From the UHGV virus genome UHGV-0098755: a stretch of 64,000 bases of DNA; one strand, 5' to 3'. Shown piece by piece: positions 485 through 63,270 of the stretch (positions are counted from its first letter, which is position 1; each line of letters opens with the position of its first letter). The notes below the pieces were generated by a model. The model made no database searches. It was not told the DNA's origin and worked only from the letters and a program-made list of their open reading frames with translations. Position numbers and translations under genes: made by a program. This DNA is from a virus.

Positions 485-1941
485 AGACCAGTTACCTCAT
501 GAAAATCGCCAAATACATCTTCGAACGTATTAGCTTTAGTTTTATCTTCACGTAAACGAATCGCAATCGGAAGAAATAATTTAACGTAATCAGTGCGGCC
601 ATCAGATTTTAACCAACCATTGCATTCGCACTCTAGAATTTTTCCAATATAATAATTTTGGTTTTCCATAATGCGAGTACGGTCAAGTTCATGCGATTTT
701 ACACCGGCTTTATCTTTTAAGCCTGAACCAGCATTTACTTTAATTTTTCCACACTCTGATTCAAGAATAAATCCACCTGCTTTAGTAGGGTCTTTACGGT
801 GAGGATAAATTCCTACAATTTTTAAATCAACATCAATTACTTCTTTAAATTTATAGAGATTTTTTGAACGAGCATTTTCCCATAATCCATCGATATTTTT
901 GAGAATAATACCTTCAAGACCTTGGTCAATATACTTTTTATAAATTACCTTAGCTTCATCTAGGTTATTTACTACCTGGTTTTCAATTAAAATTACTTTA
1001 TCATATCCTGATGTCATTTGTTCTAGTTTAGAAAAACGCACATCATATTTTAAACGAAACGCCGGAAGACCATATATTTCTACCAATGGGACATAATCCC
1101 AGACCTGAAACTTCATGCATTGAGCTTCTTTTTCTGAAATAGTTCCCTTTAAAGATTTATTAGCGATTCCATTAGAAGTAGTACGTGATTCAGCTACTTC
1201 GGCGAATTCTTTGGCTTTACTGATTTCAGGAGCACCAAAAAGAAAATCTAAGCCTTCTGGTTCCTTTTTAACTTGCTCATGGTATACCAATTCGCCATCA
1301 ATTAACACACCTTCTGGATGAATCTGGCGAGCTTCAGCAGTCATTTTGATTAATTCTTCCTTAAGAAGATCTAATCCTAGATATTCATTACCAGCTCGTG
1401 ATAAAAGACGAACATCATCTAATTCATCACCTCTAACTTCAGCAAAACACCGAGCTCCATCTGCTTTTAACTGCGCAAAGGCTGGAAACTTGATATTCTT
1501 ATTAATGCCTTTTTCATCATAAGAACTTGCCAGCATTTGAGGTTGTTCAGGAATTAAACCTGGCCAAACTTTATTTGCAATAGATACTGAAGCACCGCAT
1601 TCAAGGTCTCGCATCATAACTCGACGCAAAACTTCAACATCATCCTTTTTACCATCGGTGATATATCCAATTAATTCCTCAATTGCCGCATTTCCAGTCA
1701 ATTTCCGAGTAGCTAACGTGAATTCAATGAAGTCAAGCATATCGGTAAGAGTCAACATTCCAAAACTCTGGGTAGCAATACCAGGTTTAGGCCATTTCTT
1801 GATATAATACTGTAACCCACGAGAATAAGTCAGACGATATACCCGTTTAAGCAATTCATTATCTTTATTCTTTTCAAGAATTGCTTGCTTCTGCTTAGTT
1901 GATCCAATAGATGCTATTTCATTCAGAATTTTAAGAATCAT
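481..1941 (-). CDS. 30: ATP-dependent DNA ligase (gp30)
   Basis: 486-aa ORF; N-terminus MILKILNEIASIGSTKQKQAILEKNK and KADG adenylation motif (AQLKADGARC) match my recollection of T4 DNA ligase. Confidence 0.97.
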   Translation of the reverse strand: MILKILNEIASIGSTKQKQAILEKNKDNELLKRVYRLTYSRGLQYYIKKWPKPGIATQSFGMLTLTDMLDFIEFTLATRKLTGNAAIEELIGYITDGKKDDVEVLRRVMMRDLECGASVSIANKVWPGLIPEQPQMLASSYDEKGINKNIKFPAFAQLKADGARCFAEVRGDELDDVRLLSRAGNEYLGLDLLKEELIKMTAEARQIHPEGVLIDGELVYHEQVKKEPEGLDFLFGAPEISKAKEFAEVAESRTTSNGIANKSLKGTISEKEAQCMKFQVWDYVPLVEIYGLPAFRLKYDVRFSKLEQMTSGYDKVILIENQVVNNLDEAKVIYKKYIDQGLEGIILKNIDGLWENARSKNLYKFKEVIDVDLKIVGIYPHRKDPTKAGGFILESECGKIKVNAGSGLKDKAGVKSHELDRTRIMENQNYYIGKILECECNGWLKSDGRTDYVKLFLPIAIRLREDKTKANTFEDVFGDFHEVTGL

Positions 1942-17593: not shown

Positions 17594-17901
17594 ATTGCCA
17601 TTTTCCCTTTAATTGCTGGATGCGATTCATAATTTTCAAGGATAAAATCTTTCGGTTTCATGTATTCAGTTAACCAGTAAAGCTGTGTTTCGGTGTCACA
17701 ATTTCCAAACTCTATAGGCCAATCAATTTTAAGTTCACATAGTTCTTTAGGCTCACGACGTAAAATTTCTTTACATTGCTCAGTATGATTCATATAGATG
17801 TGAGTATTACCACCAGAAAATATCAAATCTCCTGGGATAAGATTACACATCTTAGCTACAATATGAACTAACGAAGCATATGATGCAATATTAAATGGAA
17901 G
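17590..17901 (-). CDS. td: thymidylate synthase, exon 2
   Basis: Encodes [21 protein letters not shown]...KGKMAI; the first codon follows the intron's terminal G at 17902. Confidence 0.9.
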
Positions 17902-18917
17902 CATTATGTTCAGATAAGGTCGTTAATCTTATCCCGGAATTATATCCAGCTGCATGTCACCATGCAGAGCAGACTATATCTCCAACTTGCTAAAGCAAGT
18001 TGTCTATCGTTTCGAGTCACTTGACCCTACTCCCTAAAGGGATAGTCGTTAGGCATTTATGTAGAACCAATTCCACTTATCAGATTTTACACGGTAAGTA
18101 ACTAATCCGGATGAAATTTCAAAATATCTAGCTGCATCAGCTGCACATTCAAAAATAATCCCATCACATGAAATCTTTTTAATATTATTAGGCTTTTTAC
18201 CTTTCATCTTTTCTGATATTTTAGATTTAGTTTTGTCTGAATGCTTATGATTAAAGAATGAATTATTTTCACCTGAACGATTTCTGCATTTACTACAAGT
18301 ATAAGCAGAAGCTTGTATGCGAACACCGCATTCACAAAACTTATGGGTTTCTGGATTCCAACGCCCGTTTTTACTTCCGGGTTTACCGTAAAGAGCTTTC
18401 CGACCATCAGCGCCAAGCTTAAGCATCTTAGCTTTAACAGTTTCAGAACGTTTCTTAATAATTTCTTCTTTTAATGGATGCACAGAATATGTATCACCAA
18501 ACGTTGCATCAGCAATATTGTATCCATTAATTTTAGAATTAAGCTCTTTAATCCAAAAATTTTCTCGTTCAATAATCAAATCTTTCTCATATGGAATTTC
18601 TTCCAAAATAGAGCATTCAAACACATTACCGTGTTTGTTAAAAGACCTTTGAAGTTTTATAGAAGAATGGCATCCTTTTTCTAAGTCTTTAAAATGCCTC
18701 TTCCATCTCTTTTCAAAATCTTTAGCACTTCCTACATATACTTTATTGTTTAAAGTATTTTTAATCTGATAAATTCCACTTTTCATAAATACCTCTTTAA
18801 ATATAGAAGTATTTATTAAAGGGCAGTCCTACAATTTAGCACGGGATTGTCTACTAGAGAGGTTCCCCGTTTAGATAGATTACAAGTATAAGTCACCTTA
18901 TACTCAGGCCTCAATTA
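17902..18917 (-). mobile_element. group I self-splicing intron of td (1016 nt) carrying the I-TevI gene
   Basis: Starts UAAUUGAGGCCUGAGUAUAAGGUGACUUAUACUUG... after exon-1 GGU; ends ...AUG before exon 2; the length matches my recollection of the T4 td intron. Confidence 0.9.
18049..18786 (-). CDS. I-TevI GIY-YIG homing endonuclease
   Basis: 245 aa, MKSGIYQIKNTLNNKVYVGSAKDFEKRWKRHF... GIY-YIG N-terminus, zinc finger and C-terminal DNA-binding region. Confidence 0.95.
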   Translation of the reverse strand: MKSGIYQIKNTLNNKVYVGSAKDFEKRWKRHFKDLEKGCHSSIKLQRSFNKHGNVFECSILEEIPYEKDLIIERENFWIKELNSKINGYNIADATFGDTYSVHPLKEEIIKKRSETVKAKMLKLGADGRKALYGKPGSKNGRWNPETHKFCECGVRIQASAYTCSKCRNRSGENNSFFNHKHSDKTKSKISEKMKGKKPNNIKKISCDGIIFECAADAARYFEISSGLVTYRVKSDKWNWFYINA

Positions 18918-35375: not shown

Positions 35376-36032
35376 ATGGCAGCACCTAGAATATCATTTT
35401 CGCCCTCTGATATTCTGTTTGGTGTTCTAGATCGCTTGTTCAAAGATAACGCTACCGGGAAAGTTCTTGCTTCCCGGGTAGCTGTCGTAATTCTTTTGTT
35501 TATAATGGCGATTGTTTGGTATAGGGGAGATAGTTTCTTTGAGTACTATAAGCAATCAAAGTATGAAACATACAGTGAAATTATTGAAAAGGAAAGAACT
35601 GCACGCTTTGAATCTGTCGCCCTGGAACAACTCCAGATAGTTCATATATCATCTGAGGCAGACTTTAGTGCGGTGTATTCTTTCCGCCCTAAAAACTTAA
35701 ACTATTTTGTTGATATTATAGCATACGAAGGAAGATTACCTTCAACAATAACTGAAAAATCACTTGGAGGATATCCTGTTGATAAAACTATGGATGAATA
35801 TACAGTTCATTTAAATGGACGTCACTATTATTCCAATTCAAAATTTGCTTTTTTACCAACTAAAAAGCCTACTCCCGAAATAAATTACATGTATAGTTGT
35901 CCATATTTCAATTTGGATAATATCTATGCTGGAACGATAACCATGTACTGGTATAGAAATGATCATATAAGTAATGACCGCCTTGAATCAATATGTGCTC
36001 AGGCGGCCAGAATATTAGGAAGGGCTAAATAA
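35376..36032 (+). CDS. t: holin T
   Basis: 218 aa, MAAPRISFSPSDILFGVLDRLF... with one transmembrane helix and a large periplasmic domain. Confidence 0.95.
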   Translation: MAAPRISFSPSDILFGVLDRLFKDNATGKVLASRVAVVILLFIMAIVWYRGDSFFEYYKQSKYETYSEIIEKERTARFESVALEQLQIVHISSEADFSAVYSFRPKNLNYFVDIIAYEGRLPSTITEKSLGGYPVDKTMDEYTVHLNGRHYYSNSKFAFLPTKKPTPEINYMYSCPYFNLDNIYAGTITMYWYRNDHISNDRLESICAQAARILGRAK

Positions 36033-59951: not shown

Positions 59952-60142
59952 TTTGAATGCTCTATAATTAATTTTAAAGCTTCTTCACTGACAAAAATTT
60001 CGTCAGGACCTTCTATAACTTCAACCATATGAAGTTGATTAGTTAAGAGCTCACACACGAGCTCTTTGTTATAATCTTTAAATAGCTGGTCAATACGTTT
60101 CTTATGGGCTTTCTTAAGCTGACGTTTATTTAAACGAGCCAT
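59948..60142 (-). CDS. hypothetical protein (64 aa)
   Basis: ORF track. Confidence 0.55.
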   Translation of the reverse strand: MARLNKRQLKKAHKKRIDQLFKDYNKELVCELLTNQLHMVEVIEGPDEIFVSEEALKLIIEHSK

Positions 60143-60660
60143 TAATAGCCTCGGTCTTGACGAGCGAAATTTTCAGCATTTTTCAGATAATAAAGTTTAA
60201 AGATTTCTTCAGCTGACATTCCAAGAGCAATGAATTTATTCATGAAAAAGTGAAATTGGTCAATTAGTTCAAATTTAATTTCAAGTTGATCTTCAGGAGA
60301 TAAATCTTGAATTTTCTTGGATTGCATTTCAGAATAACGTTTCTTCCAAGGTTTCCATACAGCAGAAGCTTCTTTTTCGCCATTGCTCATACCACCAAGA
60401 GAAGTATATAGCTCGCGAGTTTCGTCTGCGATATAATCGTCTTGGTTTCGCAGCCAAGCAAGAACTTCTCCCGCAGTTTCAAGTGAATCGGGATGACGAT
60501 TTGTTTCTGGTTTATCGTTAGCCAAACGAATCTGTAAATGCCGCTGCATGTCAAGCATAACCTGCAATGGGTCAATACTGTGCATAATATACTCAGCATA
60601 TGCACGATTTGCTTTATCAACACCTTCGATCAAATGAGCACATTCATTAAAGTAAGCCAT
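60142..60660 (-). CDS. 56: dCTP pyrophosphatase gp56 (MazG-like)
   Basis: 172 aa from ATG at 60660 (MAYFNECAHLIEGVDKA...); the track ORF starts 5 codons upstream. Confidence 0.9.
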   Translation of the reverse strand: MAYFNECAHLIEGVDKANRAYAEYIMHSIDPLQVMLDMQRHLQIRLANDKPETNRHPDSLETAGEVLAWLRNQDDYIADETRELYTSLGGMSNGEKEASAVWKPWKKRYSEMQSKKIQDLSPEDQLEIKFELIDQFHFFMNKFIALGMSAEEIFKLYYLKNAENFARQDRGY

Positions 60661-60724
60661 TATTTTTCCTTTCAATTCATCAATAAGTTAAATAATTATA
60701 TCATTTGAATATGTAAGCAATTAA

Positions 60725-61513
<789 letters not shown>

Positions 61514-61540
61514 TCATTTATTGCAGCAAAAACGAATTGT

Positions 61541-61548
61541 GATAAATA
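61541..61548 (+). promoter_or_regulatory. late-promoter-like element GATAAATA (7/8 match to TATAAATA) upstream of the plus-strand small ORF
   Basis: Located 22 nt upstream of the ATG at 61571; AAGGAGG Shine-Dalgarno at 61557-61563. Confidence 0.35.
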
Positions 61549-61570
61549 TTATTTTTAAGGAGGACAGCGC

Positions 61571-61771
61571 ATGGTACAAAAATTAATGGCACTTGTTAAT
61601 GCCATCAAAGGTAATAAAAAACGTATAGCTTTTACTATTTCTGCTATGATAGGAATTTTACTTTGGAATTTTGTTTTATCGCCAGTTGCTATTGCTCATG
61701 GCGTTAGTATTCCAGTAGTTACTCTTGATACATTCGTAGATTTAGCATTTGCTTTAGTTGGGTTAATTTAA
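61571..61771 (+). CDS. small two-helix membrane protein (66 aa) on the plus strand between dam and 61
   Basis: Perfect AAGGAGG Shine-Dalgarno 7 nt before ATG; two hydrophobic segments; no competing minus-strand ORF in the gap; stop overlaps the gene 61 stop. Confidence 0.5.
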   Translation: MVQKLMALVNAIKGNKKRIAFTISAMIGILLWNFVLSPVAIAHGVSIPVVTLDTFVDLAFALVGLI

Positions 61772-62796
61772 ATCTTAGCATATTTAGATAACCGCATTTT
61801 AGCCATTAACCCCTGGGCAATATTATTTTTCATATATTCCATAATTTGTTCAGGGGTTGCACCTTCCTTTCTAATCATATCATTAACATCTTTTGATTTC
61901 CAGGGAGATTTATCCCAAAACATAACCCTTTCTCCTGCATCAACTAATTTAGTCATTCGTTTAATAGTGTCAGGGTGACGAGGTTCATTATCTAAGACCC
62001 ACACTCGTCTATCTTTAAATGGAACAACTTCTAGGTCTAATTGACCACCCGTAATAGCTATACCATTTTCAATAAAAAGTGAATCTATAGGTCCTTCTAG
62101 AACATATACATCACCATCTTTAACCCGTTCGACTCCATAGATTTTTGTTGCCTCAGGATAAGCTTTGATGGTGATATATTTTTGAGGAGCATCTTTCTTT
62201 AATGCACGTCCTTGAAAAGACTCAGCTTTTCCATTAGCATTATAAATTGGAATAACAAGACGAGGCTCAGAAATTTCCTTTTTATATGTTCCCGGTGCTA
62301 TGCTATTAACTAATTTAGGCCATTCGGTTGTAAACCAAAGATATTTCCATTTATCCTTTGGAATACAACGAGCTTTTACATATTTTATAACTGGATGGTC
62401 TTCCACCAGTTTATCTAATCTAACGCATGACGGAAGAGATTTAATTATTTTCTTCTCAGGTTGTTTAGGAAGTTCTTTAGGTTTTTCTACTGGACGACTT
62501 TTACCTTTTTCTTTTCTTATTTCAAAGATATACTCACGATATAAATCAGGTTCAAACTCCTTTAAATATATTCCGATTGGTGCATGATAGTTACAGTTAT
62601 AGCAATGAATATTTCCTTCATTATTATCGCCATAATACCATCCACGGGCTTTATTTTGATCGGTTTTTGAATCTCCACAAACAGGGCATCTAAACCGTAA
62701 TTTAAAAGTTGAACTATTATTTACTTGTGTGAATTTAGGTAAATGAGCTAGCGCACGATATGCAAACTCATTATCAATCCAAGGTATTGATGACAT
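61768..62796 (-). CDS. 61: DNA primase gp61
   Basis: 342 aa; zinc-ribbon CPVCGDSK...CYNC and TOPRIM region. Confidence 0.95.
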   Translation of the reverse strand: MSSIPWIDNEFAYRALAHLPKFTQVNNSSTFKLRFRCPVCGDSKTDQNKARGWYYGDNNEGNIHCYNCNYHAPIGIYLKEFEPDLYREYIFEIRKEKGKSRPVEKPKELPKQPEKKIIKSLPSCVRLDKLVEDHPVIKYVKARCIPKDKWKYLWFTTEWPKLVNSIAPGTYKKEISEPRLVIPIYNANGKAESFQGRALKKDAPQKYITIKAYPEATKIYGVERVKDGDVYVLEGPIDSLFIENGIAITGGQLDLEVVPFKDRRVWVLDNEPRHPDTIKRMTKLVDAGERVMFWDKSPWKSKDVNDMIRKEGATPEQIMEYMKNNIAQGLMAKMRLSKYAKI

Positions 62797-62799
62797 TTT

Positions 62800-62964
62800 T
62801 TACTCTTCTTTTTCTTTAGATTCCTCTTTTTTCTTTTTAGGAATCTGTTCAGGACCTTTATTTACTACAGCGCCTGACGTTGTTCCAGTAGAGATATTTT
62901 CAGGATTACCACCTGAATCTCCAGCGACCATATCTTCTTTGATAAATTCTTTAAACGTTTTCAT
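62800..62964 (-). CDS. small hypothetical protein (54 aa), 61.1-like, below ORF-track cut-off
   Basis: MKTFKEFIKEDMVAGDSGGNPENISTGTTSGAVVNKGPEQIPKKKKEESKEKEE. Confidence 0.5.
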   Translation of the reverse strand: MKTFKEFIKEDMVAGDSGGNPENISTGTTSGAVVNKGPEQIPKKKKEESKEKEE

Positions 62965-62976
62965 ATTAGCCTCTAA

Positions 62977-63270
62977 TTATTCACCTACCACTTCAGCGAT
63001 GATATTTTTATTATTGAAGTTTTTATCACAATACAGAACGTAATTATACTGCATTACACCACCAGACTTAAGCTGTTTTTGTACTTCAGCTTTCATTTCA
63101 GGGTGATCACGCTCAACAATATTCATAATATCTGCTTCAATCTGAGTTTCAACCTCAGTCTGATCTGCAGTCATAGACCATTCGCACAAATCTTTATCAT
63201 AACCTGCCATAGCAGGCTGAGCAGCACAAGAAGCCAAAGCAAAAATTGCAGCAAAAACAAATTTTTTCAT
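62977..63270 (-). CDS. sp: Spackle periplasmic protein (superinfection exclusion/lysozyme inhibitor)
   Basis: 97 aa with N-terminal signal peptide MKKFVFAAIFALASCAAQPAMAG. Confidence 0.8.
   Translation of the reverse strand: MKKFVFAAIFALASCAAQPAMAGYDKDLCEWSMTADQTEVETQIEADIMNIVERDHPEMKAEVQKQLKSGGVMQYNYVLYCDKNFNNKNIIAEVVGE

Follow-up and report, generated by a model that had tools for sequence, protein, structure and literature searches.

A small open reading frame convergent with primase gene 61 as a conserved, probably late gene for a predicted single-pass membrane protein of T4-type phages

In T4, late promoters consist of an 8-bp box without a -35 element; 32 of the 50 late sites listed carry a perfect box, nine have an A at position -13, and the rest show other deviations including one TA-to-AT change (Geiduschek and Kassavetis, PMC2988020). 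The T at -13 is poorly conserved among T4 relatives (Nolan et al., PMC1524935), and both papers point to -13 as the site at which late promoters chiefly vary. All early and middle transcripts of T4 run counterclockwise and late transcripts are of either polarity (PMC2988020). Small proteins named RB69ORF029w in RB69 and RB32ORF030w in RB14 and RB51 belong to PHROG 2024, a family that carries the label "unknown function" in PHROGs. The present analysis concerns a member of this family in the virus genome UHGV-0098755, a T4-type (Tequatrovirus) genome of which a stretch of 64,000 nucleotides, hereafter the window, was analysed. The element in question is an open reading frame (ORF) of 66 amino acids (aa) on the plus strand, located between dam and the primase gene 61 and convergent with the latter (Table 1). 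As judged from comparative sequence data, this small ORF is a real, conserved gene for a small membrane protein of T4-type phages. It is best explained, with a probability of ca. 0.75, as an accessory late gene of the Tevenvirinae encoding a single-pass inner-membrane protein of 63-69 aa.

A conserved reading frame between dam and gene 61

The initial annotation had drawn attention to this ORF as a plus-strand frame of 66 aa with the Shine-Dalgarno (SD) sequence AAGGAGG 7 nt before its ATG, lying in a 263-bp gap without any minus-strand ORF. Both elements were seen at the expected positions, and coordinates and an ORF scan agree on the gap, which extends from 61505 to 61767; no minus-strand ORF of at least 25 aa starts in it and the longest Met-initiated minus-strand peptide is of 16 aa. 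At the base composition of the window, an open frame of 66 codons would occur by chance with a probability of ca. 0.011, and frame +1 was the sole stop-free frame in all 10 lineages examined. Every informative pair gave a Nei-Gojobori dN/dS value between 0.05 and 0.23. Between the window and T4 there are 9 synonymous and 4 non-synonymous changes, and between two Mosigviruses 11 and 6, respectively (P = 6e-4 in both comparisons).

A translated search of 50,697 phage records detected the protein in 699, with 691 matches covering at least 80% of its length; the matching records fall into 503 that are at least 80% identical (Tequatrovirus) and 196 that are less than 60% identical (Mosigvirus, Gaprivervirus and others). 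Searches seeded with two divergent members revealed additional subfamilies, which occur in Dhakavirus, Karamvirus, Jiaodavirus and other Klebsiella, Enterobacter, Pectobacterium, Edwardsiella and Kosakonia phages. Residues 2-66 of the window protein align with positions 1-65 of the 65-position PHROG 2024 profile (E 8.1e-31), which is also matched by the other subfamilies (E 1.7e-15 to 2.8e-28). A profile search against 1.84 billion representatives returned seven proteins, all phage relatives or fragments except for one weak match to a 1,255-aa protein (E 4e-4) that was taken as spurious, and a locus search with alignment A2 returned close relatives only. On the result of the profile search, the family is confined to these phages.

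Conservation in T4-like genomes, which the initial annotation had left to be checked, extends to the frame, the position and the protein motif described below, the position beside the primase gene being kept in at least nine genera of the Tevenvirinae, whether or not dam is present. A plus-strand ORF converging on gene 61 occurs in Tequatro-, Mosig-, Gapriver-, Dhaka-, Mosuguk-, Karam-, Jiaoda-, Kanagawa- and Moonvirus, and this position was seen in T4, T6, RB69, WFK, VR26, JS10, PM2, CkP1, KMI13, Kosakonia 305, Merlin and Bas37. The other flank of the ORF is variable and may be occupied by dam, 56, a MazG-like gene or a homing endonuclease. The convergence and the overlap of the two stops, also described initially, are found in relatives as well: the same 4-nt overlap, with TTAA common to both stops, exists in T4, T6, Mosigvirus, Gaprivervirus, Dhakavirus, Karamvirus, Kanagawavirus, Moonvirus and Bas37, the stops overlapping by 21 nt in PM2 and being separated by 18 nt in KMI13. 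Outside the Tevenvirinae, the ORF was absent from Krischvirus, Pseudotevenvirus, Slopekvirus, one Acinetobacter phage and one Aeromonas phage; in the ORF-less T4-like groups examined, gene 61 abuts the next gene within 15 nt, which leaves no room for it. In VR26 (Gaprivervirus), two tandem paralogues occur 8 nt apart (L005 1495..1692 and 1701..1901), one of the T4/RB69 type and the other of the JS10 type. Only the first has an ATAAATA box of its own, so that the pair resembles a late operon of two genes.

That this is a genuine protein-coding gene is shown jointly by purifying selection, by synteny between genera and by a conserved ribosome-binding site. The opposite view would be that the region is kept for functions of the minus strand, such as a gene 61 terminator, a dam promoter or oriA-related elements, and that the frame is accidental. 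In its favour, codons 4-13 contain a terminator-like hairpin on the minus strand, and the T4 reference has no gene here, nor does the T4D annotation used in the HIDEN-SEQ transposon-sequencing (Tn-seq) preprint show one between dam and 61 (bioRxiv 10.1101/2025.11.20.689424). This view is almost certainly wrong, as the comparative data already contradict it: both the frame and the motif survive at 48-57% nucleotide identity and in phages without dam, there is an excess of synonymous changes, no frame other than +1 is open everywhere, and the hairpin is confined to Tequatroviruses.

The hairpin itself (61608..61582) lies ca. 160 nt downstream of the gene 61 stop, and T6 has an identical one. In T4, one arm is altered by a G-to-A change and no hairpin was detected by the scan; none was seen in the other genera either. 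The hairpin of the window may end the gene 61 transcript, in which case the same bases would encode protein on the plus strand and possibly terminate transcription on the minus strand. Conservation of the ORF through a minus-strand terminator was considered and rejected because the hairpin does not extend beyond Tequatroviruses. Read-through past the stop of gene 61 was considered in view of the nearly stop-free minus-strand frame in register and was rejected as well, since this frame contains stops in the window and in five other lineages; its openness is explained by the absence of Tyr, His and Gln codons from the sense frame.

The gene is thus already present in databases, as part of an uncharacterised family, although the T4 reference annotation lacks it. 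A protein identical to that of the window has been deposited many times as "hypothetical protein" (in vB_EcoM_F1 and others), and the initial annotation was unaware of RB69ORF029w, of RB32ORF030w and of hundreds of entries under that name. In the T4 record NC_000866.4, the ORF occurs at 17738..17938 on the plus strand with 4 conservative substitutions relative to the window and is left unannotated; adding it there would be a useful correction.

Late-type expression signals and predicted transcription into gene 61

The late-promoter-like sequence reported initially at 22 nt upstream of the ATG corresponds to GATAAATA, which agrees with the T4 late consensus TATAAATA at 7 of 8 positions and has a G at -13. 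The same box is found in the window, T4 and BP32-type Tequatroviruses and in PM2; it reads AATAAATA in T6, Mosigvirus/RB69 and JS10, CATAAATA in VR26 and KMI13, and ATTAAATA in CkP1 and Merlin, and the canonical box itself occurs in kv_tblp2 and Kosakonia 305. The ATAAATA core is present in 11 lineages and TAAATA in all 13, the genera with TAAATA only being Karam- and Moonvirus. The box is always located 13-24 nt before the ATG. Upstream sequences cannot be aligned between genera, and Tequatroviruses themselves diverge from ca. 3-5 nt before the box. An SD of the GGAG/GGAGG type occurs at the same spacing in all genera examined.

In the 64-kb window, ATAAATA is depleted ca. two-fold, with 17 copies vs 38 +/- 6.6 expected from dinucleotide-preserving shuffles, every one of which had at least 17 copies; this is consistent with selection against stray late promoters. 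The combination of NATAAATA, an SD and an ATG on the plus strand occurs only three times in these 64 kb, the other two units being those of late genes 34 and t. The genes dam, 61, 56 and sp all lie on the other strand. Since the small ORF is oriented clockwise while all early and middle transcription of T4 is counterclockwise, only the late class is left. Late expression, as proposed initially, is therefore well supported by the sequence, through the ATAAATA-type core kept in every genus and the clockwise orientation. Late in infection, the gp55-bearing RNA polymerase would start a few bases past GATAAATA, needing no upstream element, and the AAGGAGG in the resulting leader of ca. 15 nt would direct synthesis of the 66-aa protein, as the conserved signals and purifying selection suggest.

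Because the stops overlap with no terminator between them, a late transcript would have to enter gene 61 in antisense. It could be argued that this RNA is the main product and that the ORF is secondary, a late antisense transcript over the 3' end of gene 61, or over all of it, serving to shut down the primase. Such a role would fit an ORF that is always convergent on gene 61, usually with overlapping stops, and the Tequatroviruses, in which no convincing plus-strand terminator was detected within 500 nt after the stop; in T4, both strands are transcribed at several sites at different times (PMC2988020). We nevertheless regard it as quite unlikely, since an antisense RNA would need neither the purifying selection on the amino-acid sequence (dN/dS 0.05-0.23), nor a strong SD conserved at a fixed spacing, nor motif residues that are invariant at 23-55% identity, nor the two tandem paralogous copies of VR26. 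With a protein-coding late gene as the preferred reading, the same transcript would still run into the 3' end of the primase gene, and an antisense effect may arise as a by-product.

A hairpin of -18.3 kcal/mol with a TTTCTT run was noted in CkP1, 45 nt after the ORF stop and inside the primase gene (L006 1722..1756, plus strand). It is a possible late-transcript terminator in Karamvirus, and no equivalent was found in Tequatroviruses.

Predicted topology, dispensability and candidate functions

The product had initially been described as a membrane protein with two predicted transmembrane (TM) helices. This helix count is the one sequence-level point of the initial annotation that was not borne out. 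The membrane nature is upheld, although with one helix only: in a Hessa-scale scan, residues ca. 19-42 (IAFTISAMIGILLWNFVLSPVAIA) form the sole segment long enough to cross a membrane, and the C-terminal hydrophobic run, of ca. 12 residues and preceded by two Asp, is too short for a bilayer. AlphaFold2 predicts helices at 2-13 and 16-42 and a short one at 52-63, and the RB69 orthologue RB69ORF029w has one TMHMM helix (21-41) and no SignalP signal (Nolan et al. 2006, PMC1524935 Additional file 2). The N-terminal 18 residues contain five Lys/Arg and no acidic residue (+5), and the last 24 residues contain no Lys/Arg and two Asp and end in AFALVGLI. A single pass with the N-terminus inside and the C-terminus outside is the likely topology. 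The TM helix is rich in Ala, Gly, Ser and Thr and, since it is only marginally hydrophobic, its stable insertion into the membrane is assumed.

W32, N33, P38, G44 and P48 are invariant across three subfamilies that are 23-55% identical to the window protein (alignment A1). The conserved block is also found in Merlin and RB69 and would be located at the periplasmic end of the helix and in the juxtamembrane turn, where it forms a probable functional site. Both a membrane-buried Asn and a Pro kink are typically seen where helices make specific contacts with each other, and their conservation here suggests contacts of this kind.

The end of the hydrophobic segment could also be read in another way, with residues 1-42 as a long signal peptide, comprising a basic n-region, a hydrophobic core, a Pro at -5 and an A-x-A at -3/-1, and with signal peptidase I releasing an active peptide of 24 residues, HGVSIPVVTLDTFVDLAFALVGLI, to the periplasm or the membrane surface. 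Alignment A1 shows P-x-A-x-[A/S/T] immediately followed by [H/Q/N]-G at this point in most subfamilies, a pattern that resembles the -3/-1 rule. SignalP 3.0 was, however, negative for the RB69 orthologue (PMC1524935 Additional file 2), the hydrophobic segment, at ca. 19-24 residues, is long for a cleaved signal, and in some members the residue at -3 is L or that at -1 is T. The invariant W32-N33 would moreover be unusual inside a disposable leader and points to a functional helix. Processing of a secretory precursor is thus unlikely, and a membrane-anchored protein is preferred.

A function as a holin- or pinholin-like lysis protein, making small membrane lesions or modulating holin T, is suggested by a product that is small, membrane-bound and probably late, by an Ala/Gly/Ser/Thr-rich, marginally hydrophobic helix like that of signal-anchor-release segments, and by the UniProt name "Holin" given to the homologue of vB_EcoM_OE5505. 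That name was rejected as unsupported: a charged cytoplasmic C-terminal tail is lacking, the C-terminal part having 0 Lys/Arg and being hydrophobic and predicted periplasmic, and neither an endolysin nor a lysis cassette adjoins the ORF, holin gene t being 26 kb away (35376..36032). No profile similarity to T was detected (hhalign probability 0.1%), PHROGs gives no function to the family and all other sources have "hypothetical". To our knowledge, decades of hunts for rapid-lysis mutants of T4 have mapped no gene here. A lysis protein of this kind is accordingly considered very unlikely.

Other searches gave no functional assignment. Pfam, NCBIfam and PDB sequence searches returned nothing meaningful for the small protein, PADLOC defence models had no match at E <= 1 for three family members, and Foldseek against viral models retrieved its own family, the remainder being non-significant helical matches. 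A comparison with Sp by hhalign gave a probability of 0.5%, that is, no similarity. The name "head morphogenesis protein" found in the T6 RefSeq record was rejected as an automatic transfer, the same record matching Soc to a terminase small subunit and gp56 to a ferredoxin.

In Bas37, the orthologue bas37_0144 (91945..92145, plus strand), which overlaps the primase gene bas37_0145 (92142..93170, minus strand), carried insertions at 20 of 24 TA sites and was classified as "Non-essential" on E. coli K-12 (bioRxiv 10.1101/2025.11.20.689424). Bas37 was taken to be the phage of record MZ501089 because these coordinates match the family hit in that record. In the T6 RefSeq NC_054907.1 (L007 1501), ATT replaces the start ATG and the annotated CDS (coding sequence) starts at Met6, which reflects either lost expression, whether in nature or in the laboratory, or the rare use of ATT as a start. 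Together, the Tn-seq data of Bas37 and the ATT of T6 indicate that the gene is dispensable in the laboratory, as are most accessory genes of T4.

Several points weigh against an accessory late gene for a single-pass inner-membrane protein. A G at -13 does not belong to the commonest variants documented for T4 late promoters and is not specifically documented among them, and the list of predicted RB69 late promoters has no plus-strand site before RB69ORF029w (Nolan et al., PMC1524935). The AlphaFold2 model is of moderate confidence (predicted local distance difference test score, pLDDT, of 73, from a 10-sequence alignment), and the apparent insertion energy is only ca. 0-3 kcal/mol across the family. 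Three conditional comparisons gave no phenotype for bas37_0144, with log2 fold changes of 0.33, 0.20 and -0.28 and an adjusted P of 1 (bioRxiv 10.1101/2025.11.20.689424). For a mode of action through helix contacts, conservation is the one line of evidence.

Under the accessory late gene reading, the Lys/Arg-rich N-terminus would stay in the cytoplasm, one marginal helix (ca. 19-42) would span the membrane and the acidic, hydrophobic tail of 24 residues would be periplasmic. The W32-N33...P38...G44...P48 block, at the outer end of the helix, would be the functional site, as its conservation suggests, and the protein would most likely act late in infection by binding itself or a partner membrane protein in the envelope. 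The dispensability of the Bas37 orthologue in the published Tn-seq screen would fit a host- or condition-specific accessory factor. Candidates for the envelope process so modulated are lysis timing, late superinfection exclusion and protection from membrane-acting host defences; none of the roles initially put forward, namely immunity, exclusion and lysis timing, is favoured by the findings. More tentatively, and with rather low confidence, the protein might be an unrecognised late envelope factor, for instance a membrane-embedded partner that tunes holin or antiholin behaviour, or one that blocks a host abortive-infection effector targeting the membrane, in a host- or condition-specific manner. 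Were this true, the small size of the gene, its dispensability in laboratory strains and its absence from the reference annotation would explain why 70 years of T4 genetics have overlooked it.

Gene neighbourhood and comparison with known systems

The coordinates of the ORF, its signals and the neighbouring genes are given in Table 1.

Table 1. Features of the small ORF and of its surroundings (window coordinates).
Feature	Coordinates	Strand	Basis or remark
gp56 gene	60142..60675	minus	
dam	60725..61504	minus	
Late-promoter-like box GATAAATA	61541..61548	plus	22 nt before ATG; predicted transcription start ca. 6 nt downstream, near 61554
Shine-Dalgarno AAGGAGG	61557..61563	plus	7 nt before ATG
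66-aa small ORF, protein MVQKLMALVNAIKGNKKRIAFTISAMIGILLWNFVLSPVAIAHGVSIPVVTLDTFVDLAFALVGLI	61571..61771	plus	PHROG 2024 match; dN/dS 0.05-0.23
Terminator-like hairpin and T-run, ORF codons 4-13	61582..61608	minus	11 pairs, -12.2 kcal/mol
Predicted single TM helix IAFTISAMIGILLWNFVLSPVAIA, codons 19-42	61625..61696	plus	Hessa-scale scan, charge count, AlphaFold2, TMHMM on RB69ORF029w
Most conserved block, codons 32-48, W-N-[FYL]-x3-P-x5-G-x3-P	61664..61714	plus	Alignment A1
TTAA common to converging stops	61768..61771	both	ORF TAA 61769-61771 plus; gene 61 stop 61768-61770 minus
Primase gene 61	61768..62796	minus	
61.1	62800..62964	minus	
sp	62977..63270	minus	

The spacer between dam and the promoter box is a hot spot of insertions and deletions, and the changes always end a few bases short of the box. 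T4 has ca. 46 additional bases just upstream of the box when compared to the window (T4 L001 2627..2709; window 61505..61540), and Bas37 has a further small minus-strand ORF upstream of the box (bas37_0143, 186 nt, non-essential). Many Tequatroviruses have an extra gene of 186 aa between dam and the small ORF that is not in the window; it is found in BP32 (OR906198.1, L002 1605..2165, minus strand) and was seen as an insertion of 550-600 bp in many megablast matches. Its product has sub-threshold Pfam similarities to the DpnII restriction endonuclease (E 0.002, 17.8 bits vs a cutoff of 23) and also to RE_BanI, and this gene, next to a GATC methyltransferase, could encode a GATC-specific endonuclease or be a remnant of one. 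On the other side of the primase gene, gene 61.2 (208 aa in T4) is absent from the window genome, in which sp begins 12 nt after 61.1 (window 62800..63270; T4 L001 3967..5052), and BP32 is alike.

For a very large phage family, T4 serves as the reference genome, and many omics and screening studies draw on its annotation. Because it is absent from NC_000866 and from the T4D annotation, the small gene is invisible in the omics and Tn-seq data sets that rely on them. CRISPRi-ART was aimed at annotated CDSs only, a literature search returned nothing on RB32ORF030w, T4 ribosome profiling or unannotated T4 ORFs, and T4 reviews on post-transcription and on replication are silent about the ORF. Within a long early/middle block, the small gene is the sole one that is clockwise and probably late, and it is kept beside the primase throughout the Tevenvirinae. 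Given this position and the invariant intramembrane Asn/Pro motif of its product, a host-specific role in the envelope or against host defences is a reasonable possibility. It is at the same time of an ordinary kind, a small accessory phage membrane protein, that has already been deposited and that is non-essential in the sole screen at hand.

Among described systems, holins and pinholins are likewise small, late membrane proteins and one homologue bears this name, but the small ORF protein has one helix instead of two or three, no charged tail, no lysis cassette and no similarity to T. Imm, Sp and RI are small non-essential envelope proteins of T-even phages, with sp at a distance of only 1.2 kb. 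The N-terminal membrane segment of RI is marginally hydrophobic, like that of the small ORF protein. The latter shows no sequence or profile similarity to Sp, to which the comparison was restricted as imm is outside the window. Imm and Sp are expressed from the counterclockwise early strand, whereas the small ORF can only be late, and its predicted periplasmic part of 24 residues is too small for a folded domain as in RI or Sp.

With late genes t and 34, the small ORF shares a NATAAATA box, a short AT-rich leader, a strong SD, an ATG within ca. 20-40 nt and a clockwise orientation. It differs from them by having G instead of T at -13 in its box and by standing alone in a long counterclockwise early/middle block, head-on into gene 61. 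The closest match remains PHROG 2024 with RB69ORF029w and RB32ORF030w, from which no material difference was found: the family, the position, the block and the single predicted helix are the same, and of the three subfamilies of PHROG 2024 the window protein represents the Tequatrovirus/Mosigvirus type.

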